DNA of 20,000 bases from an uncultured virus (IMG/VR IMGVR_UViG_3300035445_000118) (Duplodnaviria; Heunggongvirae; Uroviricota; Caudoviricetes). How positions within the stretch are numbered: the first letter of the stretch is position 1; every line of letters begins with the position of its first letter. A program made the translations under genes and the position numbers. This document shows positions 5,115 through 20,000 of this stretch, in pieces. Below the pieces are notes generated by a model. It saw only the letters and a list, made by a program, of their open reading frames with translations. It made no database searches and had not been told where the DNA came from. Location: the IMG/VR virus record IMGVR_UViG_3300035445_000118; one strand, 5' to 3'.

Positions 5115-5220
5115 CCGATTCTCTCCTCTCATATCATCGGGGATACCGGGATCGCGCCGCTTTCGGCGGTGGGTGGGGGGAAGAAAGCCTCCAGCAGTTT
5201 GAGCGCGACCCCTGTGGAGT

Positions 5221-6920: not shown

Positions 6921-6942
6921 CTCAATATAGAGGAGAGAAACC

Positions 6943-7215
6943 ATGTTCAGACGCAATCGGAAGACTCAGAAAAGCCAGTATCCAGACGAACAGACCTTCG
7001 AAGCGCATTTTAACACCTATGGCGAGATTGAATTGTGCCAGATTGACCGGGAAACCGGACTCGCCCTGGTGTTAGTCGGTCGTTTCAATAGCACGACTCT
7101 CCGCCTGTGGCAAAAGGCCAATGCCGTGGAAACCAGCCGGATTATCTGGGGCCGCGACAATGCCGCCGCTGACTTGATCTGGACCCGCAAGCATGGGTTT
7201 GGCCAGGACTACTAG
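6943..7215 (+). CDS. Hypothetical protein
   Basis: 90-aa ORF with GAGGAGAGAA RBS at 6930. Confidence 0.8.
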   Translation: MFRRNRKTQKSQYPDEQTFEAHFNTYGEIELCQIDRETGLALVLVGRFNSTTLRLWQKANAVETSRIIWGRDNAAADLIWTRKHGFGQDY

Positions 7216-7257
7216 ACCACCTTATCAGCCGACTTTAGCCATGAGGAGCACAAGATC

Positions 7258-7707
7258 ATGTTGAACACCAATTCGTTGTACTACACTGAAAACCCTTACC
7301 GCTGGGAGTATCTCCAAGAGGAACAGACTGAAAGCGAATTGTCATCCTTGGCGGACCGGCTGTTAGGCGACTTCTATGAAGCGTACTACCGGCGCCAGAT
7401 CAAGCGCTGGGATTGGAAACAGATTCGCGAAGACGCTGAAAACAACCCGCAAACGTCCATGGACGGCGACTCCTATGGATCGTGCTTTATCGGTACCGTG
7501 TTCGACTTGAATCCCAGCGGAAAGTATTGGACGTGCTGGGCCATGGGCAATGTGGATCGACTCGAAGCGATTCAAGACACCGCATTTACGGAAGCGCTCG
7601 ACTCCATTGCAAACAGCCGGGATATGTGGATCGAATCAGGCGAGGGTGATCCCTGTGATTTGTACGCTTGCATCGGTCTCGACTCGGATGAAAGCGAAGA
7701 CTTGTAA
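7258..7707 (+). CDS. Highly acidic hypothetical protein (candidate DNA mimic)
   Basis: GAGGAG RBS; by hand count 31 D/E versus 11 K/R in 149 aa, with many Trp/Tyr. Confidence 0.8.
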   Translation: MLNTNSLYYTENPYRWEYLQEEQTESELSSLADRLLGDFYEAYYRRQIKRWDWKQIREDAENNPQTSMDGDSYGSCFIGTVFDLNPSGKYWTCWAMGNVDRLEAIQDTAFTEALDSIANSRDMWIESGEGDPCDLYACIGLDSDESEDL

Positions 7708-7759
7708 GCTGACACCAGCTGGCCTAATGGGAATTAGACCAGTCTGTCAGGTGACAAGT
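7700..7759 (+). other. Long imperfect intergenic hairpin 1
   Basis: Nested arms ACTTGT/ACAAGT, CTGACA/TGTCAG, CTGG/CCAG and CTAAT/ATTAG around a GGGA loop; no U-tract. Confidence 0.65.
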
Positions 7760-7781
7760 TAATCAAGAGGAGTGTACTGCC

Positions 7782-7988
7782 ATGAAAACGACCCTGTACC
7801 GCCTTTACCTGAAGTATCGCGCGCACCAGCTGCGCCAATCGTGGCAAACGTTGGATCGTCTGAACGCCCGCGCCCACGCGAATCAGGACGTCGCCGCGCT
7901 GGCGTATTGTGTGGAGCACTACGCGACCCTGTACCGCCAGTCTGAAAGTCTGCTGTTATCGGCCCATCAATACGGGCTTATGAGATAA
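7782..7988 (+). CDS. Hypothetical protein
   Basis: 68-aa ORF with AAGAGGAG RBS. Confidence 0.75.
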   Translation: MKTTLYRLYLKYRAHQLRQSWQTLDRLNARAHANQDVAALAYCVEHYATLYRQSESLLLSAHQYGLMR

Positions 7989-8003
7989 GAGGAGAGAATC
8001 GCC

Positions 8004-8381
8004 ATGTTAACTTGTAGTCGGTGTCACAAAGAAATTGATGATAGCCAAGTCGGGCCGTTGGGGGAGCACTTTGGAGAATGTGGCCGGGATGAAAACGAAC
8101 AGCCGGTTTGCTACGTGTGCTGTGCCATCTGGGACTCGGAACTGATGAAAGCCCAACACAAAACTGTGTTGTATCTCTCCAAGTCCAAAACCGGTCAATG
8201 GTTGGTTTCCAATTGGCCCGGTACGCTCCAGATCAGAGTGCATCAACCGCGTAAGGGTCGTCACAATATCGCCCGGACCCGCTATGATGTCTGGTTCCGT
8301 TATGCCGGGCTGTGCTGGCATGGCGTCCAATATGGGGAATGGACTCAGATTCTCCATTGCAAGGTCGTCAAACCCTTCTGA
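8004..8381 (+). CDS. Hypothetical protein with N-terminal Cys cluster
   Basis: CSRC...CYVCC; GAGGAGAGAA RBS at 7989. Confidence 0.8.
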   Translation: MLTCSRCHKEIDDSQVGPLGEHFGECGRDENEQPVCYVCCAIWDSELMKAQHKTVLYLSKSKTGQWLVSNWPGTLQIRVHQPRKGRHNIARTRYDVWFRYAGLCWHGVQYGEWTQILHCKVVKPF

Positions 8382-8441
8382 TTGCTGGTCACTGAGAGCG
8401 GACAAGTTAAGCGCTTGTCCGCTCCATTGTGCGCAGCAGTC
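8380..8441 (+). other. Long imperfect intergenic hairpin 2
   Basis: Perfect 11-bp stem GAGCGGACAAG/CTTGTCCGCTC (8396-8424) inside the outer arms GATTGCTG/CAGCAGTC. Confidence 0.7.
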
Positions 8442-8465
8442 TTAGCCAAGAGGAGTAAGTCAACT

Positions 8466-8738
8466 ATGAAGCTCTCACCCTTACCTGAAAATCGGCAGTA
8501 TGATCGAGTCCGCGTCTTAATCCCTGATTTTTCCCTGCACAGTATTGAGGTCTGGTTTTGTTGGACGTCGCCAGACCGGGCGAGTCACCTCCAGACCTAT
8601 ACGATCAAAACCTGGCAGCTCAATAACCTGGCCCGCTTCATGGCCCGCAAGGGATTGCACCCGGTCTCTCAGGACCCTACCACACGCGGACTCGCGATCT
8701 GGTATGCCCGGAATCTAAATTCAGAATCTAAAATCTGA
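8466..8738 (+). CDS. Hypothetical protein (MKLSPLPENR...)
   Basis: Start re-assigned to ATG 8466 after AAGAGGAG. Confidence 0.75.
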   Translation: MKLSPLPENRQYDRVRVLIPDFSLHSIEVWFCWTSPDRASHLQTYTIKTWQLNNLARFMARKGLHPVSQDPTTRGLAIWYARNLNSESKI

Positions 8739-8769
8739 GAATCTAATTTCTCAAGAGGAGAATCTAAAT

Positions 8770-9240
8770 ATGAATCCCGTGAAGAATGTCTTGAGAGAAT
8801 ACCGGCGCCAGATCGTCAACCGCGCCGTGTACTATGGCGGTGAACGCGAGCGGGCGAGCGCGACGATCTACGCCTATCATCAAACGCACAATCTGATCCT
8901 GGACTTTCGCCAGATCGCACGCGAGGGCGGCCATTTGTCCTATGGGCGCGGCGGCTGGACTTTGCATGTCGGCACGCTCAAGTCCATTCAAGGGTACGGC
9001 GGCCTGGAGCAGCCGATCCCCCTCCTGGCCATTTTGTTAGGTGTACCGGTCATCAACACCCGCACGATCCCCGATGAGGTGATCGATCAGGTGATCGCGT
9101 TCCCTATGGCCCGCGCGGGCTGTCAACAATACGGGCCGTTCACCGCGTGGGATTATGCGCCGCTCGCCTATGTGGCCCGACTCTATCAGGCGTTGGGCGC
9201 GACCCTGTACAATTTTCCGACCGTGGAATCTAATTTCTGA
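8770..9240 (+). CDS. Hypothetical protein
   Basis: 156-aa ORF with AAGAGGAG RBS. Confidence 0.8.
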   Translation: MNPVKNVLREYRRQIVNRAVYYGGERERASATIYAYHQTHNLILDFRQIAREGGHLSYGRGGWTLHVGTLKSIQGYGGLEQPIPLLAILLGVPVINTRTIPDEVIDQVIAFPMARAGCQQYGPFTAWDYAPLAYVARLYQALGATLYNFPTVESNF

Positions 9241-9284
9241 ATCTGATCGGCACGACTCTAATTCTCTGAGGAGAGACACTAAAC

Positions 9285-10430
9285 ATGGGCACCCTGTATC
9301 GTATCACCTCCAGCGGCATGAAAGCGGTTGAACCGGTCCGCTTTGAACCGGGCAAAGTCTATTACTACGGCGCGCATATTCCCGCCAGTGTGATCTATGT
9401 CACCCGCACCGACGACGACACGATCTACTATTTGAAACTGATCGATCACCTGTACGGCAGTGAGCCGACGCACGAATGGAAAGAATCCAGCGCGCACCTG
9501 TCTTTGAGCGTTAACAGCGGCGTTGAAATTATGACTCGCCAGCTCGCCGAGCTGGGCGATCACCCGATGAATCTGTTTCACCGCGCCAGTATCACCCGTA
9601 TTCTGGCCGGGGACCCTGCCGGGTTTGACCTCCCGACGGATTACCAAACGTTTGACGCCTGGAGTATCCAATGCCTGAAGGAACAGAACGAACGCGCCGC
9701 CGAACGCGCTCAAATGAAACACTATACCCTGATCGAGACGGCGAATTTTATTCGCGCCGTCCTGAAAAAAGAATTTCCCGGTCAGAAATTCAGCGTTCGG
9801 TCGGATCGCTTCAGTATGGGCAGCTCGATTGATGTCAAGTGGATCGATGGACCGACCCAAACCGAAGTCAACGATCTTATCAAACGTTTTGCCAGTAAGG
9901 GAGTCACCGATAATACCGATTATACGCCCGATGTGGACGGGATCGGCCCCGATGGCCAGCCCTGCACTTATGGCGCCTCGTATGTGAATGGATCACGGAC
10001 CTACAGCGCCGATTTTTTACAGCGCGTAGCCGCCCTGGAATGTCCGAAATGGGGCAAAACGGCGGCGGATCTGAATCTGGTAAACTGCGAGGACAGCGAA
10101 CCTTATTTCGCCCATGAGCCCGCCGTCATCGTAGACCCCCACGGCCACCCGTTCGGGCGCACCTTGCGGGATCGCGTGATGACCGCCGTTTACGAGACGA
10201 GTGATTATCACCGCCCAGAACCCGTAACCATCGAATCTAAACCGGTGAGCGTCGACTCTCAACCCATGATCACCAGCGACCGCCCGACCAGCCGAGTCGG
10301 CGAGTACAAAGGTCACCCGACGATTACCCTCATCGACGGCGATAAGGAATTTTCGTTCGGGCTGGCCAAAGCCCGTCAAATTCTCGCGAACTTGACCGCC
10401 ATTCAAGCGTTTGTCGAGTCGCAGTCCTGA
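9285..10430 (+). CDS. Multidomain protein with an LPD29-like domain (large polyvalent protein-associated domain)
   Basis: ETANFIRAVLKKEFPGQKFSVRSDRFSMGSSIDVKWIDGPT matches the LPD29 pattern as I recall it. A separate C-terminal module EYKGHPTITL...FSFGLAKARQIL follows a Pro-rich linker. Confidence 0.75.
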   Translation: MGTLYRITSSGMKAVEPVRFEPGKVYYYGAHIPASVIYVTRTDDDTIYYLKLIDHLYGSEPTHEWKESSAHLSLSVNSGVEIMTRQLAELGDHPMNLFHRASITRILAGDPAGFDLPTDYQTFDAWSIQCLKEQNERAAERAQMKHYTLIETANFIRAVLKKEFPGQKFSVRSDRFSMGSSIDVKWIDGPTQTEVNDLIKRFASKGVTDNTDYTPDVDGIGPDGQPCTYGASYVNGSRTYSADFLQRVAALECPKWGKTAADLNLVNCEDSEPYFAHEPAVIVDPHGHPFGRTLRDRVMTAVYETSDYHRPEPVTIESKPVSVDSQPMITSDRPTSRVGEYKGHPTITLIDGDKEFSFGLAKARQILANLTAIQAFVESQS

Positions 10431-10432
10431 CC

Positions 10433-10495
10433 GTTCAACCGGTGCGCACGAGTCCGCGAGCTCCCCCGTTCGCGGATTCCCGGCAAGGGTTGAAT
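10433..10495 (+). other. Long imperfect intergenic hairpin 3
   Basis: TTCAACC/GGTTGAA outer arms; inner 12-bp stem GAGTCCGCGAGC/GTTCGCGGATTC with two G-U pairs. Confidence 0.7.
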
Positions 10496-10531
10496 TGTGG
10501 AACCATCCACATTTTAGAGGAGTGTAACGCT

Positions 10532-10990
10532 ATGAAACTATACGATGATTACCGCTATGAATACCAAGTCCGTTCAACGAGTATGGATAATCCCGGTGCG
10601 TGGGAGCATGTGCGGACGGTTTCCGATCCGAACTCTGAAACCGGGATTACGCTCACCTACCGCCGCGCGCGCGTGCCTTATCACGCCGATTGTGAGTGCT
10701 GTAAATCTCACCGCGTGCACGCGCTTTCGTATCACTGGGGTCTCTTGGCCGCTTATGCTTACGATCTGATCGTGGATGTCATCTCCGAGGATACTCGGTT
10801 ATGGATCAAAGGGCTGGAGCCCTACGAACGGCGCGCGATTTATGATCGTCTGATAGTTAATGCCCAACACGATCAAAATGAATGGGAGCACTTCCCTCAC
10901 GATTTCGCCGACAATCTGAATCGTGCCGGAGATCGTCACTGGCTGGATTGCGCGTTGGTCTGGTTTGAACTGTACGGCATGGAGGACTAA
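10532..10990 (+). CDS. Hypothetical protein (MKLYDDYRYE...) with a HADCECC motif
   Basis: Start re-assigned to ATG 10532 after AGAGGAG; TAATG-coupled to the next gene. Confidence 0.75.
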   Translation: MKLYDDYRYEYQVRSTSMDNPGAWEHVRTVSDPNSETGITLTYRRARVPYHADCECCKSHRVHALSYHWGLLAAYAYDLIVDVISEDTRLWIKGLEPYERRAIYDRLIVNAQHDQNEWEHFPHDFADNLNRAGDRHWLDCALVWFELYGMED

Positions 10991-12360
10991 TGGATACCCG
11001 ACCCTGTACCACCTTCAGCACGTGGGAGCGCGTCCGCCGGGATTGCCGAGCGACCGGCTACCATCCCGCCGAGACCTACCGCGCGCACAATCTGATCCCC
11101 CTGGTCACCTGGAATCTGATTCACCTCCGGCGTTATCGGGCCGATCAGGCCGTGTATGTGTTCGACCGGCCCGACGTAGATCGGTTCATCGGCGGTCAGT
11201 TTTCCGTCAGTGCGGCGGCCCTGAAAGCGGCACTGAACCGACTCGCCATCAAAGATCAACATCATAAAGGGCATACAACGCTCGGCGGCGTCCAGGTCCG
11301 GGCCTATGGGGAGTATGTAGAGCTGGCCAGCTCTGAACGGACGGTGAAAATCACCCGGCTATCCGGTATAGGGCCCGATACCTCCTGGCTCACCGTCTCG
11401 GCCACCGCCCTCCAAGAGATCGCGACGCTGCACACCCCCCCCCGCAAAACCGATCTGGCCGTCCTGAAACTGACCCTGACCGACCAGAATCTAATTCTGG
11501 AATCTAAATCGGATCGGCATTTCAATCCCCGCTATACCCTGTACCGCCTGACCGGTCCGGTCTGGCCCCCACGCCCCGATCCCGATGAGTCCGCCGTGCG
11601 GCTGACCGTGGGCCCCGCCTTCTGGTCGGCCCTGACCCGCGCCGTCAAGCTCCTTCCACCGACCGCTCGGAAACGGTATCCAGAGGTCTCACGGTTTGCC
11701 TATGTCTGGCTGGCCGTCCACCCGGATCGGCTGGTGCTGGCCGGGGCGAACGGCTACATGTTCAACCGGATCAGCCTGCCTCTGGAGACCGGAATCACCG
11801 CCCCGCGCTACGTCGGGCTGCCCCCGGAACTAGCCCAGCTGAATCTGAATGCGGAGTCGGCCACCCTGATGATTTGGGGAGAGTACGTCCGGGTCGAGAC
11901 CGACTCGGAGTCGTTTCAATTCGTGACCGGTCCGTGTTACGAGGGGAACTTAGATGATCTGACGAACGGGGACGCTGTGCCCGTGGTGCTGCCTTATGCG
12001 GATCTCGCCCACGCCCTGAAGACCGTCGCCCCCATTGCGAAGACCGATCACAATATCGTGCGGCTGGCCCTGCGAGAGAAGACGTTGACCGTCGCGGCGT
12101 CCTCCGCCGAACGCGGCGATAGTGCCGAATCTCTGGACCTGGACTCTGTTCCCAGCCTGGTCGCCCTGCCCGATCTGAAAATGGACCTGACCTACCTCAA
12201 AAAAGCCCTCGACGGTCTGAATCCCGGTGCCCACGCCAAACTCCAACCGGTCACCCTGCTCTGGACGACCCACGACACACACCGCCCGCTGGGGCTCACG
12301 ACCGCCGGACAGCCCGACACCTGGATTATGCCGATGATTGAGCAAAACAAGGAGCGCTAA
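10990..12360 (+). CDS. DNA polymerase III beta-clamp (DnaN)-like protein with an extra N-terminal region
   Basis: Degenerate DnaN motifs: LVLAGANGYMF (cf. LxLVATDGHRL), VRLAL..KTLTVAASSAERGDSAESL, MDLTYLKKAL (cf. FNxxYLxDxL) and C-terminal IMPM. Confidence 0.7.
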   Translation: MDTRPCTTFSTWERVRRDCRATGYHPAETYRAHNLIPLVTWNLIHLRRYRADQAVYVFDRPDVDRFIGGQFSVSAAALKAALNRLAIKDQHHKGHTTLGGVQVRAYGEYVELASSERTVKITRLSGIGPDTSWLTVSATALQEIATLHTPPRKTDLAVLKLTLTDQNLILESKSDRHFNPRYTLYRLTGPVWPPRPDPDESAVRLTVGPAFWSALTRAVKLLPPTARKRYPEVSRFAYVWLAVHPDRLVLAGANGYMFNRISLPLETGITAPRYVGLPPELAQLNLNAESATLMIWGEYVRVETDSESFQFVTGPCYEGNLDDLTNGDAVPVVLPYADLAHALKTVAPIAKTDHNIVRLALREKTLTVAASSAERGDSAESLDLDSVPSLVALPDLKMDLTYLKKALDGLNPGAHAKLQPVTLLWTTHDTHRPLGLTTAGQPDTWIMPMIEQNKER

Positions 12361-12363
12361 CCC

Positions 12364-13821
12364 ATGATACACGCCGAACTCGCCGAGTTTTTCCCCACGC
12401 CGCGCGACGTGATCCACAAACTGATCGCGCCCGTGTATGATCGTCTCATGAAAGCGGAAACCACCCTCTTAGAGCCGTCGGCGGGCAAAGGGGATATTCT
12501 GGACCTGATCGCCGCCCAACGGCACGGGCAGACCTGCGCCCGCTTATATGCGATGGAGCTGCGCCGCGAGTTTCGCTATATCCTGGCCCAAAAAGGCTAC
12601 GACGTAATCGGCGACGATTTTCTCGCCCCCTTCCCGGCCCGCCATATCGACGTGGTGATCATGAATCCCCCCTTTTCGAATGGGGATGAACACCTCCTGA
12701 AAGCCTGGGAGATCGTGGCCGCCGGGGGCGTGGTGGTCTGTTTGCTCAATGCGGAAACGGTGAACAACCCCTACACCGCCCGCCGCCAGCAGCTCAAGAC
12801 AATTCTTGACCAGTACGGCACCGTGACCGCGCTCGGCGCCTGTTTCAAACACGCCGCCCGCCCCACCGACGCCGAGATCGTGCTGGTCGTCTTGAAGAAG
12901 CCCGCGCAAACTGAGAATCTGTTTGACGGCCTGAAGTTCGAACGCGCCCGCATGGAATCTGAAGGAGCGTTTACCACCGCCGAGCTGGCCAACACGAATC
13001 TGTTTGCGGCGCTGGTCGCCCAACATGATGCCGCCGCCCGCGCCCTGATCGAGCGCCACCGCTTGAGTCAGGCCATTGCCCATTACACCCGCGCGGTCTA
13101 TACGCCGGGCCACTCACCAACGTTCCCCTATGACGGGCTGAATACCGAACTGGACCGCCTGCGCGATCTGTTTTGGGCGTTCATCTTCGACCGTACCCGC
13201 ATCGCCGCCTGGACGACCACCAAGGTGCGCAAGCAGTTTGAGCAGCAGCGCGCGGTGTCGATGCGCCTGGCCTTCACCCTGGACAATCTGATCGCCCTCC
13301 TGGAAACCCTGAAAGAAAACCAGGTGGAGATCATGAAACAATGCGTGGTGGAAGTCTTCGACAAAATCACCGCCCTGCATGAAAAGAACACCCTCCACCG
13401 CGAAGGCTGGAAGACCAACAAATCCTGGATGGTGGCCCGTAAAATCATCGTGCCCAAAGGCGTCAGCTACGAGCCGAAATTCGACTCCTGGAGTACCTGC
13501 ACGTATGATCAGAGTTTTTTTGAAGACCTGGATAAAGCCTGTTGCTTCCTGGATGGCAAACCTTACGACACCCTGCGCCAATACCATGATCTGGGTTCAT
13601 CTAAATGGATCGTTCCAGAGTTCTGTACCATCAGTGACGCGATCTATCGTCACGTGCGCGAAAACGCCTTGAACTGGGATCAGCCCTTCGACAGTGGCTT
13701 TTTCACGATCCGAATTTACAAAAAAGGCACCGTGCATCTTGTGTTCAAAGACCCGTCCTTGTGGCAGCGCTTCAATCAGGCCGCGGCCGATGGCAAATGC
13801 TGGGTTGGACCAGGTTACTGA
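12364..13821 (+). CDS. N6-adenine DNA methyltransferase with DUF4942-type C-terminus
   Basis: EFFPTP, LEPSAGKG (motif I), IMNPPF (motif IV); C-terminal GWKTN...KIIVP and FFTIRIYKKGTVHLVF. Confidence 0.85.
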   Translation: MIHAELAEFFPTPRDVIHKLIAPVYDRLMKAETTLLEPSAGKGDILDLIAAQRHGQTCARLYAMELRREFRYILAQKGYDVIGDDFLAPFPARHIDVVIMNPPFSNGDEHLLKAWEIVAAGGVVVCLLNAETVNNPYTARRQQLKTILDQYGTVTALGACFKHAARPTDAEIVLVVLKKPAQTENLFDGLKFERARMESEGAFTTAELANTNLFAALVAQHDAAARALIERHRLSQAIAHYTRAVYTPGHSPTFPYDGLNTELDRLRDLFWAFIFDRTRIAAWTTTKVRKQFEQQRAVSMRLAFTLDNLIALLETLKENQVEIMKQCVVEVFDKITALHEKNTLHREGWKTNKSWMVARKIIVPKGVSYEPKFDSWSTCTYDQSFFEDLDKACCFLDGKPYDTLRQYHDLGSSKWIVPEFCTISDAIYRHVRENALNWDQPFDSGFFTIRIYKKGTVHLVFKDPSLWQRFNQAAADGKCWVGPGY

Positions 13822-13850
13822 TTGACGGACGCTATACCATCTGCTATACT
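13822..13850 (+). promoter_or_regulatory. Internal sigma70-type promoter with extended -10
   Basis: TTGACG (13822-13827), 17-bp spacer ending TGC, TATACT (13845-13850). Confidence 0.8.
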
Positions 13851-13881
13851 GAAGAGAAATCTAATCGAGGAGAGAAGGACC

Positions 13882-14484
13882 ATGAAACGCACGAGTAAGT
13901 ACGCTCCCTATGTCCATGAATATCACGATAACCAGGGCCGCCCGTGGTATGCGGTGGGCCAGTACCATCCATCGCGCGGGCAATACACCCGCCCCCTGGA
14001 TAGTCGTGAACGCCGCCGGACGGGCTGTTCGGCCGAGTTTGCACGTACCCCTGCTGGGATGCAATCTTACCGCACGCGCGCTCAAGCCCTCCGCCGCGCC
14101 CGCACGCTGTTTTCGGACGCCATCGGCGACTCCTATCCCGACGATCTGATCGAGGCCCTGGAAACCCGTGAAGCCGGGCTGGCCGGGCCATTGATGACGG
14201 CGAACCAGGCCTGGGATCAACACCTGGATCAAGAAGTCGAGGCCGCCACCAGTTTGGGCCAGGTGCCAGGGACCGGTCAAGCCATCATCGCCCGTGAAAA
14301 TCGGTTGCGAGCAGCGGGGAACATCTATTTCGAGCAGGGCTACCGCCTGCACCGCACCGCGCGTCAGGTGCGCGGGTTAGGCTTTACGATTCCAGACGAC
14401 GCGATTGAGTACCGCATCGAGACAGCAGGCCATATCGCCACCACGGAAGCCGTGCGGTTGGTCTATGTCACACGGAACGCCTGA
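13882..14484 (+). CDS. Hypothetical protein (MKRTSKYAPY...)
   Basis: Start re-assigned to ATG 13882 after GAGGAGAGAAG; the track start at 13822 lies within the promoter. Confidence 0.8.
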   Translation: MKRTSKYAPYVHEYHDNQGRPWYAVGQYHPSRGQYTRPLDSRERRRTGCSAEFARTPAGMQSYRTRAQALRRARTLFSDAIGDSYPDDLIEALETREAGLAGPLMTANQAWDQHLDQEVEAATSLGQVPGTGQAIIARENRLRAAGNIYFEQGYRLHRTARQVRGLGFTIPDDAIEYRIETAGHIATTEAVRLVYVTRNA

Positions 14485-14499
14485 CACTCATCACCCCGT

Positions 14500-14525
14500 G
14501 GGGGAGGATCGTCCTCCCCCTTTTC
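14500..14525 (+). terminator. Intrinsic terminator
   Basis: GGGGGAGGA-TCG-TCCTCCCCC followed by TTTTT. Confidence 0.85.
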
Positions 14526-14543
14526 ATTCACAAGGAGAAGAAT

Positions 14544-14741
14544 ATGCCCCCCGGAAAACATCAAGTCCTGCGTAAAGGGGTCAGCTACAAGTTGCCCCCG
14601 CGTATTCTGGCGATGGTGGATGCGCTGGCCGAGCAGGCGAGCACCAGCAACACGCGCGCCATCGAGATCGCCATCGAGCAAGCCTACTACCGGCAGTTCC
14701 CCGACGTGTTGGGGCTGCCCGTCGCCGAATCTAAATCGTGA
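14544..14741 (+). CDS. Ribbon-helix-helix (CopG/Arc-like) DNA-binding protein
   Basis: KGVSYKL (ribbon), PPRILAMVDALAEQ (helix), SNTRAIEIAIEQAY (helix); AAGGAG RBS. Confidence 0.7.
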   Translation: MPPGKHQVLRKGVSYKLPPRILAMVDALAEQASTSNTRAIEIAIEQAYYRQFPDVLGLPVAESKS

Positions 14742-14760
14742 ATCTAATCGAGGAGAGACG

Positions 14761-15345
14761 ATGATGCACGAAAACTTTAAATGGAATGGCGCGGGCTGGT
14801 ATGCCAGTCGCCAAGAAGAGTTTGACCATGTGCAATACATCAATACCTATTGGGTCGCCGAGTTCGATTCCGACCGATATGAAGCGGGAAGAGCGGCTCG
14901 TCAGGCCAACTTGGGTACCCCGCACCGCTATGCGGCCCCACCGGCGGGGACTGACAATCGGGTCGTGTGGAATCCGTCGGACGAACATGTCGCGCAGAAT
15001 CAGCGCCGTGAAGTGATTGCTAACCTGTTCCATTTCGACCCCACCTACGAAGCCGCGCCCGGTCTGACCTGGGAAGTGGTAGTTACCGATGCGTCCGATC
15101 TGAACGGGGATGATCAGGCGGTCGCCATGCAGAACGCGAAAGCAGCGACCACTGACCATTCACCTACCGGCTTGTGGGTCGCGGTGTGGGGTGGTACGCA
15201 CCTCTGCGTGCCCGTGCCGAAAGCCTTAGCGCAACAGATTGCCGAGGGCTTCAAGGGGGCGACGATCCGACGCCCCACCGAGTTGGAATATGAGATCATC
15301 GTGAACACCTGGCTCGCCATTCGTGAGAGACAGGACGAGCAGTAA
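14761..15345 (+). CDS. Hypothetical protein (MMHENFKWNG...)
   Basis: Start re-assigned to ATG 14761 after GAGGAGAG. Confidence 0.8.
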   Translation: MMHENFKWNGAGWYASRQEEFDHVQYINTYWVAEFDSDRYEAGRAARQANLGTPHRYAAPPAGTDNRVVWNPSDEHVAQNQRREVIANLFHFDPTYEAAPGLTWEVVVTDASDLNGDDQAVAMQNAKAATTDHSPTGLWVAVWGGTHLCVPVPKALAQQIAEGFKGATIRRPTELEYEIIVNTWLAIRERQDEQ

Positions 15346-15346
15346 T

Positions 15347-15676
15347 ATGACCCGCCCCCTGAGCACCCGCAGCCGCACCTACCTGGCCCACATCGCCAAC
15401 TACGTCACGGGCTATGCTTTCCATATCCCGTTCTCCACCGAAATGATCCTGCGCAACGCGCGACTGATTGAATGGCGTGGGGAACGCGAGTTCGGACGGG
15501 ATGTGCTGTACATCACCGACGCGGGGCGCAAGGTCCTGGCCCAGCCCGCCGAGACCCCCGTGCCCATCCTGATCCGGGATGAGGATGCCGCGCATCTGAT
15601 CCGCTATGAAGGCTACCTCAATGCCCGTGGACGGCGTGCCCTGGCGGCGTGGCGTCAGTCGAAAACGGGAATCTAA
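15347..15676 (+). CDS. Hypothetical protein, possible winged-helix (wing motif LYITDAGRKVL)
   Basis: ATG 15347 lies 1 nt after the upstream stop; ITDAGR and LNARGR resemble repeated wHTH wing motifs (inference). Confidence 0.65.
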   Translation: MTRPLSTRSRTYLAHIANYVTGYAFHIPFSTEMILRNARLIEWRGEREFGRDVLYITDAGRKVLAQPAETPVPILIRDEDAAHLIRYEGYLNARGRRALAAWRQSKTGI

Positions 15677-15713
15677 TTCGTGAATCTAAATCTGAGGGAG
15701 GAGAGAAAATCGC

Positions 15714-16661: not shown

Positions 16662-16672
16662 CATCTCCCCAC

Positions 16673-16703
16673 AAAAGAGACCGCCCGGTGAGAAGCCGGG
16701 CGG
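16673..16703 (-). terminator. Intrinsic terminator for the convergent minus-strand genes
   Basis: CCGCCCGG/CCGGGCGG stem (16681-16703) followed on the minus strand by TCTCTTTT. Confidence 0.6.
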
Positions 16704-16722
16704 CAAGAGGAGAGAAATCGAT

Positions 16723-16747
16723 GACCCCCGATGAGGGGGTCTTTCCT
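16723..16747 (+). terminator. Probable terminator ending the plus-strand block
   Basis: GACCCCC-GATGA-GGGGGTC followed by TTTCCT. Confidence 0.5.
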
Positions 16748-16754
16748 GACCAGT

Positions 16755-17306
16755 CTACCCGATTTCGCGTTCAATGTAAAGCGCGACCCGCCCTTGCGCA
16801 TCGGACTCCACCGCCGACCAGTCGCCGACCACTTCCAGCACCAGCGTGCGCCCCTCGATACGCACCACCCGCCCCTGGCCCTCGACCTTGAGCGGCTTCA
16901 GCGGCTCGCCTACCGCCGCACTCAGGGCGTCGCGCAGGGCGTCCACCGGCCAATCGTGGTCCGCCGCCTGCTCCAGCCAGTCCAACGCCGACTCCAAATC
17001 CTGCACGCGCATGGCGACCCGGTAATGCGACCACCGCAGCAGCGGGAACATCGTGCGCGTATCGGGCGGATAAAAGGCCGCAACGCGCCGGAAGTCGCGC
17101 AGCGTGCTGGTATTGTAACGAATGTCGGTGGCATACTGGCCCAGGCTATCCTCGCCGTAGCGCTTGGCGACCCGTCCCGCCAGATCGCCCAGCTCCCAGG
17201 AACGACCATCTTTGACCTGCACGGCGTCCAGCCCCGCCGCCACCAGGGTTTCCCAACTATCGTCGATCAGGTCCAGCACGTCCACCACGGGCTGTGTCAT
17301 CGTCAT
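16755..17306 (-). CDS. LmbU-like / DUF1016-N-like DNA-binding protein
   Basis: WELGDL...RYG...TLRDFRRVAAFYP...R...LRWSHY...WLEQAADHDW...LR pattern; ATGA-coupled to rusA. Confidence 0.6.
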   Translation of the reverse strand: MTMTQPVVDVLDLIDDSWETLVAAGLDAVQVKDGRSWELGDLAGRVAKRYGEDSLGQYATDIRYNTSTLRDFRRVAAFYPPDTRTMFPLLRWSHYRVAMRVQDLESALDWLEQAADHDWPVDALRDALSAAVGEPLKPLKVEGQGRVVRIEGRTLVLEVVGDWSAVESDAQGRVALYIEREIG

Positions 17307-17830: not shown

Positions 17831-18157
17831 CTACAGATGGACAATGACATAGCCCATCACGTAGGCCATGATGGGTGTGGAGAGCAACTTGAATACCTGG
17901 ATAAAGAAGTTTTCCCAGGTGGCGCGCTTGTCCTCTGGATTCACCGGCATATCTTGATGGGTAAGATAACTGCCTACCAAGGCGACGCCGATAGCGGTGC
18001 GTAAGCTCAGGATGGGCGCATTGAATGGGTCCACGATAAACCACCCCCACAGGGCTTGTAGAACCTATCCTTTCAGCAAGATAGCGATAACTGATACCAT
18101 GGCGGTGATGATTAAGATCAAGAAACATCCACTGGGGGTAGTTACTTTATGCTCCAT
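17831..18157 (-). pseudogene. Membrane protein gene interrupted by one in-frame TAG (18067-18065)
   Basis: GAGGAGAGAAA RBS and ATG 18157: MEHKVTTPSGCFLILIITAMVSVIAILLKG*VLQALWGWFIVDPFNAPILSLRTAIGVALVGSYLT.... This is in frame with the track ORF 17831-18034. Confidence 0.7.
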
Positions 18158-18215
18158 GATTTTCTCTCCTCTGGATTAATCCAATGGTCGTCGTTCATCC
18201 AATCCTATAGGGGGG

Positions 18216-18500
18216 TTAGCGAGCCATAACCTTCACATCGGGATCATCATACGGTCGCTCCTGCGTTTCAACGCGGACGGTCGACATGGCGGTGCGAAAC
18301 TGATCCAATTCGGCATTCAAGGTCTCCGCATCCACAAAACAGAGATAATGCTCCAGAATCGTCATGCACACACTGGACATCATCTGGCTGAGCGGCACCT
18401 CGTTCGACTTCCCGAAATTGAAACTGCCCCCACGGTAACCCGGCTGACCTTTGGGCATCTCCTTGAGGGTGAAGGTCGCAGAAATCGACAGTCTAGGCAT
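18216..18500 (-). CDS. Hypothetical protein
   Basis: 94-aa ORF with AGAGGA RBS and protein-like composition. Confidence 0.7.
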   Translation of the reverse strand: MPRLSISATFTLKEMPKGQPGYRGGSFNFGKSNEVPLSQMMSSVCMTILEHYLCFVDAETLNAELDQFRTAMSTVRVETQERPYDDPDVKVMAR

Positions 18501-18619
18501 AGTATGATTCCTCTAAAGCAGCCCACGTCGGTAACGGGGGCGGGTCCATCGGACGATCACTGACTTTCAAGTCGTGGCCATAGTAGATTTTGACACAGGG
18601 ACAGGCGTAACCATCCCAA

Positions 18620-19640
18620 ACGATGACCGCCCACTTATGTCCCCAGCGGGGATGAGGCGGTGTGTGCAGCCGTTTCCATATCCGTGCATGAGGCCCGACC
18701 GCCGCTGTGTGGGCACGGCGGAACAACACGGGACAACCAGGATATAACTCATCGGTATCGATGGGGGTCTCTCCTCAATCAAAACCATCATGGACCCCGC
18801 TACTGCGAGACGGCACGCAGTCCTTGCAGCCTCAACCGGGGTCTTAATCATCTTGTCGTGTTGAGGAAACGAGTCCGCCGTCAATGACGTGCCCTACGCG
18901 CGGTCCGTAGTGCCTGCTCTCGTCAGGCTGACGGGCATCCGTTAATGTACAATCGCGCGAACTATGCCGGACCCACGCGAAGGGGGATACACCTCAAGTA
19001 ATCCTGATTTACCGTCCAGGCTGTATCCCATGCCCAGACCTGCCCTTGTTAGCTCTAAATCAGCGCGTCTTCTGCTGATGCGGTTCCCGCGTCTAACGGC
19101 GGGCGATACCCTGCGAACGGGCCAACTAGGGGGCGAGCAGTGTCCCCCACGATGCTCCGACCAAGCAGTTTGTCATGCCCCCGCTTTAAGCTGCGACCGC
19201 CTCAANTCANGTGNCGNATGANANTCGGCGGAAAACTCGCGNCCAGGTGATGCTGATGAAAACCTCGATGCTGGTCATAGGCTGCACCCTTGCNGGCGCG
19301 GGGGCCNTGGCCTTGTCCGCTCNCCAGCNTTCGAANGCTGGCATTTCCCNTTGTTANGGGCGACTTGNCCTTAGTCGACGCGGATACTTCTCTCCTCACC
19401 ACCCCCGGCGAGCTTTGCACTCGCTACAGGTTGACCATTCCTCGCCTGACGCCTTTCACCTCGAACATCGGAAGAGGAGTTCGTCATGCCTGACCGCAAG
19501 GCTACGGATCAAGGTGGGCTACTCAGGACCGGACATGCCAAGAGACCGCTTTCACGCACCCTGTTCATGACACAGGACCGCTTTAAGTGGTTCTGGGCCT
19601 CACCGGCGTCGGGGGCGGTGAGGAGAGAAGCAGGTTGTTA
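18620..19640. ncRNA. Candidate large structured non-coding RNA (boundaries approximate, strand unresolved, minus favoured by the promoter)
   Basis: No credible ORF; more than 15 hairpins or multibranch stems, a 24-bp long-range helix and a tRNA-like cloverleaf; downstream of the minus-strand promoter at 19844-19816. Confidence 0.55.
19315..19384 (-). tRNA. Degenerate tRNA-like cloverleaf (apparent AAC triplet in the anticodon position)
   Basis: TCCGC..GCGGA acceptor-like stem, D-arm GACT-AAGGNCA-AGTC, short arm CCCN-TAACAA-NGGG, variable AAAT, T-arm-like CCAGC-NTTCGAAN-GCTGG. Stem lengths are non-canonical and six bases are N. Confidence 0.35.
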
Positions 19641-19815
19641 AAGTGCGCGACGTTCCACATTTTCATCGATCTATTGATCGGGCTGGCCTCTGGGCCACTT
19701 GGCGCGGAATTTAGCTACCCTTCCCACTGGCTCGTTGAGCAAACTGCCGGGGTACTCTCGCTCGGTGGCGCTCATTCCAGGACCCGCTTCCGCTTCCGTC
19801 CACCCGATCACCATC

Positions 19816-19844
19816 ATCTTAGCACCCCTTTCAAAAGTTGTCAA
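19816..19844 (-). promoter_or_regulatory. Leftward sigma70-type promoter with extended -10
   Basis: TTGACA (19844-19839), 17-bp spacer ending TGC, TAAGAT (19821-19816). Confidence 0.7.
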
Positions 19845-19853
19845 TACCGTATG

Positions 19854-19881
19854 TTGACTTGCGGGGAATTGGTGCTATACT
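19854..19881 (+). promoter_or_regulatory. Rightward sigma70-type promoter with extended -10
   Basis: TTGACT (19854-19859), 16-bp spacer ending TGC, TATACT (19876-19881). Confidence 0.65.
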
Positions 19882-19906
19882 GGTAGACAGAAAAGGAGAA
19901 CNANCT

Positions 19907-20000
19907 ATGTCTGGAACCCGCACNAAATATATCCATGTGGCCCTCGATGACAGCCACGACATGATCCGGGTGGATGAACCCGAACACCGCGCGGCCCACC
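19907..20000 (+). CDS. Partial CDS (MSGTRTKYIHVALDDSHDMIR...), possibly a small DNA-binding regulator
   Basis: AAGGAG RBS and ATG 19907; open to the window edge. Confidence 0.55.
   Translation, partial: MSGTRXKYIHVALDDSHDMIRVDEPEHRAAH

Follow-up and report, generated by a model that had tools for sequence, protein, structure and literature searches.

Genes and transcription units of the locus

The window, i.e., the whole stretch of 20,000 nucleotides that was analysed, derives from a tailed dsDNA phage. An ORF scan detected the large and small terminase subunits, methyltransferases, a clamp-like protein, and RusA. The rightward genes span approximately 6.9–16.7 kb, and a leftward unit extends from a promoter at 19844–19816 to a terminator at 16704–16680, as judged by a consensus promoter and terminator scan. 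One sister phage fragment, G003, is syntenic with the window up to approximately position 16875, that is, short of the 24-bp helix element described below. For the 183-aa protein, a close relative (P0002, 84%) is encoded on a 73.7-kb contig.

One rightward cluster (9285–13821, plus strand) comprises genes for an LPD29-domain protein, a divergent sliding-clamp-like protein, and a DUF4942 methyltransferase, and a small CopG-like regulator (14544–14741, plus strand) is encoded downstream of a terminator. The motif ATCTAA(A/T)T(C/T) is repeated just upstream of several rightward genes, often as pairs 13 nt apart (plus-strand copies at 8713–8770, 9228–9264, 11489–11510, 13859–13866, 14729–14749, and 15671–15692). 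It is kept in G003, where 8735–8769 is identical across 35 nt, and possibly represents operator sites or recombination points of an ESAS-like kind. Most promoter-like sites of the phage share the −10 hexamer TATACT. Near the right end of the window (19816–19881), two sigma70-type promoters stand back to back, and the rightward gene from 19909 resembles a ribbon-helix-helix regulator by eye:

19816–19844, minus strand: sigma70-type promoter, 10/12 consensus with a TG extension; a consensus match only, predicted start near 19810, putative driver of the leftward leader
19854–19881, plus strand: divergent sigma70-type promoter, predicted to drive the gene from near 19909, which exits the window

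An extended ribosome-binding site marks a subset of genes

The extended ribosome-binding site (RBS) GAGGAGAGAA, with at most one mismatch, occurs in 12 copies in the window against 1.08 expected, a number matched by none of 200 shuffles. All nine sites listed by an earlier sequence-only reading are present, each upstream of an ATG, although that list overlooked the copy at 18776 (minus strand). One listed site, 16707 (plus strand), has an ATG behind it in the window, but this ATG is not kept in G003. The part of the tag conserved across phages is the 9-mer GAGGAGAGA, whereas the tenth base drifts. Among sites of the form (G/A)AGGAG..ATG, the 9-mer is carried by 9/19 in the window and by 4/15 in G003. 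Eight sites could be paired between the two genomes (five tagged and three untagged). The 9-mer is kept at four of the five orthologous tagged sites (9268, 13867, 14750, and 15698), the ninth base being different at 5128, and all three untagged sites remain untagged in G003. The tail of the tag is not known to pair with the canonical anti-Shine-Dalgarno (anti-SD) sequence. The extended RBS is a genuine tag. At the phage's own eight tagged RBSs, the ATG lies 1–7 nt behind it:

6930, 7989, 9268, 13867, 14750, and 15698 (span 6930–15707), plus strand: rightward genes with GAGGAGAGA as RBS, candidate targets
5128 and 18171, minus strand: further tagged RBSs, candidate targets

A 30-aa hydrophobic frame with a tagged RBS (18065–18157, minus strand) and a 67-aa hydrophobic frame (17831–18034, minus strand) resemble holins or type I toxins in appearance only.

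A similar arrangement is known from the cluster K mycobacteriophages. Their SAS repeats occupy the RBS position in a subset of genes and combine AGGAG with conserved bases unable to pair with 16S rRNA, and the authors in 2011 left open whether an RNA or a protein binds them (PMC3203893). The phage tag is likewise a repeat at the RBS position with AGGAG and extra conserved bases. It differs in being another sequence, 9–10 nt long, that does not fit the 13-bp SAS consensus, and in that a candidate complementary RNA is encoded within the same genome.

A 24-bp helix with a competing local fold

The long helix proposed from sequence inspection is borne out: the arms 19387–19410 and 19607–19630, separated by 196 nt, pair at 22/24 Watson-Crick positions, the other two being one G.U and one A.C whichever strand is read. 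No other 24-nt inverted repeat in the window is as good, and none of 20 block shuffles reached 22 pairs (best 19). Folding of the 261-nt helix region gave z-scores of −4.7 (plus strand) and −5.4 (minus strand), with 0/200 shuffles reaching these values in each case. The competing 8-bp hairpin at 19598–19623 likewise exists and excludes the long helix; when the inner part was shuffled 2000 times, 1.2% of the shuffles had a local complement of equal length.

19607–19630, minus strand: helix 5' arm with the anti-RBS (19629–19620), predicted fold
19598–19623, minus strand: local 8-bp hairpin trapping the anti-RBS core, excludes the long helix
19411–19606, no strand assigned: inner domain, 196 nt, structure predicted
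19387–19410, minus strand: helix 3' arm with the RBS tag (19397–19388), without an ATG here

Neither arm is followed by an ATG in the window: ATC and three codons stand behind 19397 (minus strand), and a TTG with an 83-codon frame behind 19620 (plus strand). The minus strand was taken as the transcribed one, since a strong minus-strand promoter lies upstream and the interval 17872–19854 contains no plus-strand counterpart by the consensus scan. Against this choice, the better fold of the inner 196 nt is that of the plus strand (z −2.1, vs. +0.2 on the minus strand). A plus-strand ORF of 51 codons (19486–19641) was rejected, as its ATG and RBS are altered in a related contig, X2, in a gappy part of the alignment. 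Short direct repeats (families D7 and D18) are common to the element and the stretch on its left (19157–19190, 19475–19490, and 19578–19587).

On the minus strand, the order of the parts is anti-RBS arm, local trap hairpin, 196 nt, and RBS arm. In simulations of a growing transcript with its 5' end at 19669, the local hairpin prevails (p 0.82–0.97) until the 3' arm is made, and the long helix forms (p 0.87) once this arm is complete; a 5' end at 19810 weakens the local hairpin (p 0.00–0.56). Opening a ribosome footprint at 19397 is predicted to cost 30.0 kcal/mol, vs. 2.9–14.3 kcal/mol at 18 other sites.

These energies bear on the proposal that refolding or processing frees the anti-RBS arm, which would then silence many phage genes in trans. 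The arm alone would pair with tagged RBSs at −17 to −21 kcal/mol (−31 at one site), and net binding of −5 to −10 kcal/mol would be left if the transcript ended short of the 3' arm. In the full RNA, however, the arm is fully paired and its opening would cost 23.6–25.6 kcal/mol, leaving net binding to the eight tagged RBSs at +9 to +14 kcal/mol. The helix would thus make a poor trans-acting switch, as an opening cost of about 25 kcal/mol exceeds the gain at any target. Moreover, the scan found no terminator inside the element, and a fully exposed anti-RBS copy is located elsewhere (opening 0.3 kcal/mol). We consider a trans role of the arm highly improbable.

Of the other explanations offered for the helix, the one by retron-like arms failed. 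The two ORF scans (36 and 37 ORFs) detected no reverse transcriptase, including among the ORFs beside the RNA up to position 20000, and no stable DNA hairpin of the msd type was predicted for either inner half on either strand (z +0.25 to −0.78).

Allelic replacement and relatives of the element

Run X1 may represent the sample from which the window came; in it, the locus forms a two-allele bubble. The window allele has a depth of 15.2 and the other allele 71.9, with 84.6 in the common flank. Two segments differ between the alleles:

19391–19639, no strand assigned: swapped for 441 other letters in the X1 majority allele (depth 71.9 vs. 15.2)
19670–19815, no strand assigned: 146-nt segment swapped for 6 letters in the X1 majority allele (allele comparison)

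The replacement of the first segment also argues against the trans-acting arm, because a core global switch is unlikely to reside in a minority allele. The 441 letters could carry another anti-tag.

Partial likeness to the element was found in two contigs from two studies, X2 (19387–19531, depth 2) and X3 (19387–19477, depth 2.8), and halts in both at the helix end 19387. They share an identical 30-letter flank and were therefore counted as one relative. On the minus strand of this flank, an ATG lies 4 nt behind the tag position and is followed by eight sense codons, a comparison that covers 30 flank letters and the position, not the letters, of the tag; we estimate the chance of such an ATG at roughly 6–10%. 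The substitutions listed for X2 disrupt 5/6 predicted inner-domain pairs on either strand, the alignment being partly gappy. Judging from the way the differences are listed, approximately four more probably lie in 19387–19416, in which case helix letters vary between relatives.

The boundaries invite comparison with a small mobile or invertible DNA element (MITE-like or an inverton) with 24-bp terminal inverted repeats. Such repeats are present, the likeness to X2 and X3 does not extend past the repeat, where the flank is unrelated, and the element is confined to the minority allele. Yet no target-site duplication accompanies the repeats, and the alternative allele holds 441 other letters instead of an empty site. 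No strand-changing joint was seen among those listed, in contigs that drop rare variants. An inner 20-nt pattern had no exact match across 185,579 genomes. Overall, a mobile or invertible element appears quite improbable.

Wider searches for homologues of the element produced 8, 10, 2, 1, and 31 pattern loci in viral sequences and 3 in metagenomes, all attributable to chance by BLAST or by eye. No match was found in phages or plasmids, and comparison with 30 virus records gave one weak 34-nt match within unrelated sequence. Searches with the neighbouring proteins yielded no homologous locus, and a homologue search with 18770–19200 gave none (0/5). Among the listed runs, none was an RNA dataset containing the element, and X3 is probably DNA. 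One of the chance matches to the helix pattern (L005:1501–1727, on an unrelated virus contig) is a strongly folded intergenic stretch that ends in a GAGGAGAGA RBS and an ATG.

A putative long leader region with a second hairpin

The region 18770–19812 holds no convincing gene; four SD-preceded frames of at least 25 codons occur in it, three of them on the plus strand. Two structured segments were recognized:

19190–19385, minus strand: hairpin cluster, non-coding, with 15 Ns including 4 N-N pairs stacked on stems (0.8–0.9 expected)
18770–18869, minus strand: second long hairpin, z −3.17, with its 3' arm over the RBS tag 18776

The N-N pairs of the first segment hint at compensatory strain variation. 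The tag at 18776 (minus strand) precedes an 89-codon frame (18493–18762, minus strand) that seems to start at ATC and for which no homologue was found. No match at gathering was obtained with Rfam 15, including the C4, GOLLD, ROOL, and riboswitch families, and the Rfam search of 18700–20000 gave none at E 10; the lone sub-gathering Rfam match was to RAGATH-10 (14.2 of 41.2 bits). In the absence of an Rfam match, any resemblance to RNase P, SRP RNA, hammerhead, or group I/II introns was discounted.

This architecture allows another reading of the helix, as a stem with a structural role or a role in RNase III processing, at the base of an exchangeable domain within a non-coding leader RNA of 0.7–1 kb, running from 19811 to 19113 or 18770, with the RBS letters merely reflecting its origin. 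The lack of a convincing gene across 18770–19812 suits such an RNA, and its 5' end pairs best with 19113–19180 of approximately 4000 windows (−61.2; next −57.5). The four symmetric N-N pairs on stems point the same way (P about 0.01 with Watson-Crick pairs only), as does the fact that the other allele swaps exactly the helix-closed domain. On the other hand, the fold of 19113–19811 is unremarkable once the element is removed (z −1.4 and −0.6), the X1 majority allele lacks the 5' partner strand, and no Rfam family matches. Reading the Ns as strain variants is itself interpretive, and the N test is not significant on the plus strand with G.U allowed (P 0.18–0.23). We regard a purely structural or processing stem as unlikely.

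A putative translation lock acting in cis

The interpretation that we favour, with an even chance, is that the element of 244 nt controls translation in cis as a 5' leader cassette that can be swapped, and that in this phage the lock is orphaned. It builds on the sequence, the order of its parts, the allele swap, and the flank in the relative. Transcription, folding order, and any effect on translation are putative in the following scheme. Transcripts from the minus-strand promoter would present the anti-RBS arm first, and the 8-bp local hairpin would catch it. The RBS arm, emerging approximately 200 nt later, would be briefly free, and a ribosome could load; the RNA would then refold into the 24-bp helix, locking the RBS site. 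In the relative, the element would head a gene. In this phage, where the start codon is missing, it would accordingly be an orphaned lock or merely a folded domain of a long leader. Any trans-acting anti-RBS of the phage would be a separate RNA of approximately 75 nt at 16745–16672.

The predicted leader hairpin covers the tag at 18776 in the same manner as the tag at 19397 is covered, which favours a lock in cis. The strong minus-strand promoter, the predicted folding order, the high cost of opening the footprint at 19397, and the ATG 4 nt behind the tag position in X2/X3, within the 1–7 nt of the phage's own tagged RBSs, also speak for it. Against it stand the lack of an ATG behind the arm here, the fact that the relative is a single low-depth sequence, the weaker local hairpin with a 5' end at 19810, the better predicted fold of the inner 196 nt on the plus strand, and the length of the helix, which far exceeds that of the MS2 pairing.

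The closest parallel is the maturation gene of the levivirus MS2. In its 5' UTR, the SD is paired with a distant upstream complement across intervening folded arms, and a metastable hairpin behind the complement traps it and permits brief translation (PMC4615214). The same long-distance pairing of an upstream complement with the SD is predicted here (p 0.87), as is a metastable hairpin trapping the complement, although its strength varies with the 5' end. In the window no start codon follows the SD; an ATG is found in the X2/X3 flank. The likeness is one of working principle only: MS2 is an ssRNA phage with a 7-nt SD, whereas the present element belongs to a terminase-bearing dsDNA tailed phage and has a 24-bp helix, a 9–10-nt tag, and a 196-nt insert, with kinetics that are surmised.

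The SD is likewise locked by a distant anti-SD in the type I toxin mRNAs aapA3 and hok, which also form metastable hairpins during transcription (PMC6733600). A long-distance lock with transient hairpins is thus common to both; in aapA3 and hok, unlike in this element, the long-range anti-SD lies downstream and the transient hairpins block translation (PMC6733600). No toxin gene is evident behind the RBS arm here.

A candidate small RNA directed at the tagged genes

At 16.7 kb, 2.7 kb away from the helix, a compact unit carries the anti-tag in an exposed position:

16672–16745, minus strand: candidate sRNA of approximately 75 nt (predicted), with a hairpin, an anti-RBS seed (16717–16706), an intrinsic terminator (16704–16680), and a U-rich tail
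16752–16780, minus strand: promoter-like site, 9/12, where the 183-aa gene ends, with both hexamers also present in G003

In the predicted fold, 17 unpaired bases including the anti-tag lie between the hairpin and the terminator. The tag copy on the opposite strand, at 16707, is probably not an RBS: the 56-codon frame behind it extends in antisense into the 183-aa gene, and at the equivalent site of G003 none of ATG, GTG, and TTG follows at 0–8 nt. A plain alternative, with two genomes compared, is that a rightward gene has been deleted and 16707 is what remains of its RBS, next to a conserved terminator.

Seed and terminator retain 34/35 bases in G003, where the flanking genes are 60–73% alike. 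Such conservation is not unique, since the regions shared with G003 contain approximately ten further blocks of equal conservation. The first hairpin keeps its fold in G003 with different letters. In the promoter-like site, 8/17 spacer bases differ while both hexamers are kept, which is only partly independent evidence because the −35 hexamer lies within codons and the −10 hexamer begins with a stop codon.

Opening of the seed is predicted to cost 0.3 kcal/mol, and the predicted net binding is −10.7 to −15.2 kcal/mol for the eight tagged RBSs vs. −2.8 to −6.1 kcal/mol for eight untagged ones. When the window's duplex sites for the sRNA are ranked, the 12 tag copies take the first 12 places, as follows from the seed sequence. 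A model of the sRNA found no match beyond its two training sequences in 85 sources and one further weak match (16.6 bits) in 29 records.

The helix arm itself might be a target of this RNA. As an RBS without a start codon, it could act as a decoy, titrating the sRNA as long as the leader is unfolded; the seed would pair with the arm at −17.9 kcal/mol, and no ATG stands behind the arm in this phage. At equilibrium, however, the arm is locked in the helix (opening 26.8 kcal/mol), and the relative has an ATG at that position, which leaves us giving the decoy hardly any credence.

The sequence-only reading had seen in the helix a global translation switch. The tag is real, the two folds are mutually exclusive, and an exposed anti-RBS RNA is seemingly encoded; what found no support is the helix arm as the trans regulator, and the idea of a global switch may hold through another RNA, the 16.7-kb sRNA. 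In the model that we put forward, chosen genes, mostly rightward and of early type, would bear a private RBS extension, and one anti-RBS RNA of approximately 75 nt from the opposite strand would silence them together. The same tag/anti-tag pair would be reused in cis to lock leader RBSs, in the 24-bp helix and the 18.8-kb hairpin. Resting on the comparison of two genomes and on predicted folds, this model is offered tentatively, as having slightly under an even chance.

Its nearest structural counterpart is the SuhB/MmgR sRNA, which consists of a hairpin, a pyrimidine-rich stretch, and a terminator, and which has been reported to block SD regions in trans (PMC3346310; bioRxiv 10.64898/2025.12.09.693200). 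The unit 16745–16672 likewise has a hairpin, an exposed pyrimidine stretch, and a terminator. The Rfam model RF00519 (SuhB/MmgR) aligns to it over its whole length (positions 1–77), but scores 22 bits, below the gathering threshold of 41 (E 0.021 when 351 nt were searched), so that the unit would work like this family without being a member. It differs in being phage-borne, with a seed that matches the phage's own extended tag. SuhB/MmgR is further characterized by an alphaproteobacterial host and Hfq-assisted repression.

A phage precedent is the c4 antisense RNA of P1 and P7, which blocks translation of a phage mRNA near the RBS, with one target operon and pairing via loops (PMC12197685). 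The candidate is similarly a phage RNA against translation of phage mRNA near the RBS, yet it has no match to the Rfam C4 family. A phage sRNA directed at the phage's own tagged early RBSs was not found in the literature searched, which left most subscription journals outside.

If the cis interpretation is true, the helix would extend MS2-type timing to a dsDNA phage, on a cassette that can be swapped. If the sRNA model is true, the phage would possess a translation-level shut-off of early genes with an address code, and the question of what SAS-type repeats bind would have an answer; a candidate partner of the tag and eight candidate targets lie here within 12 kb.
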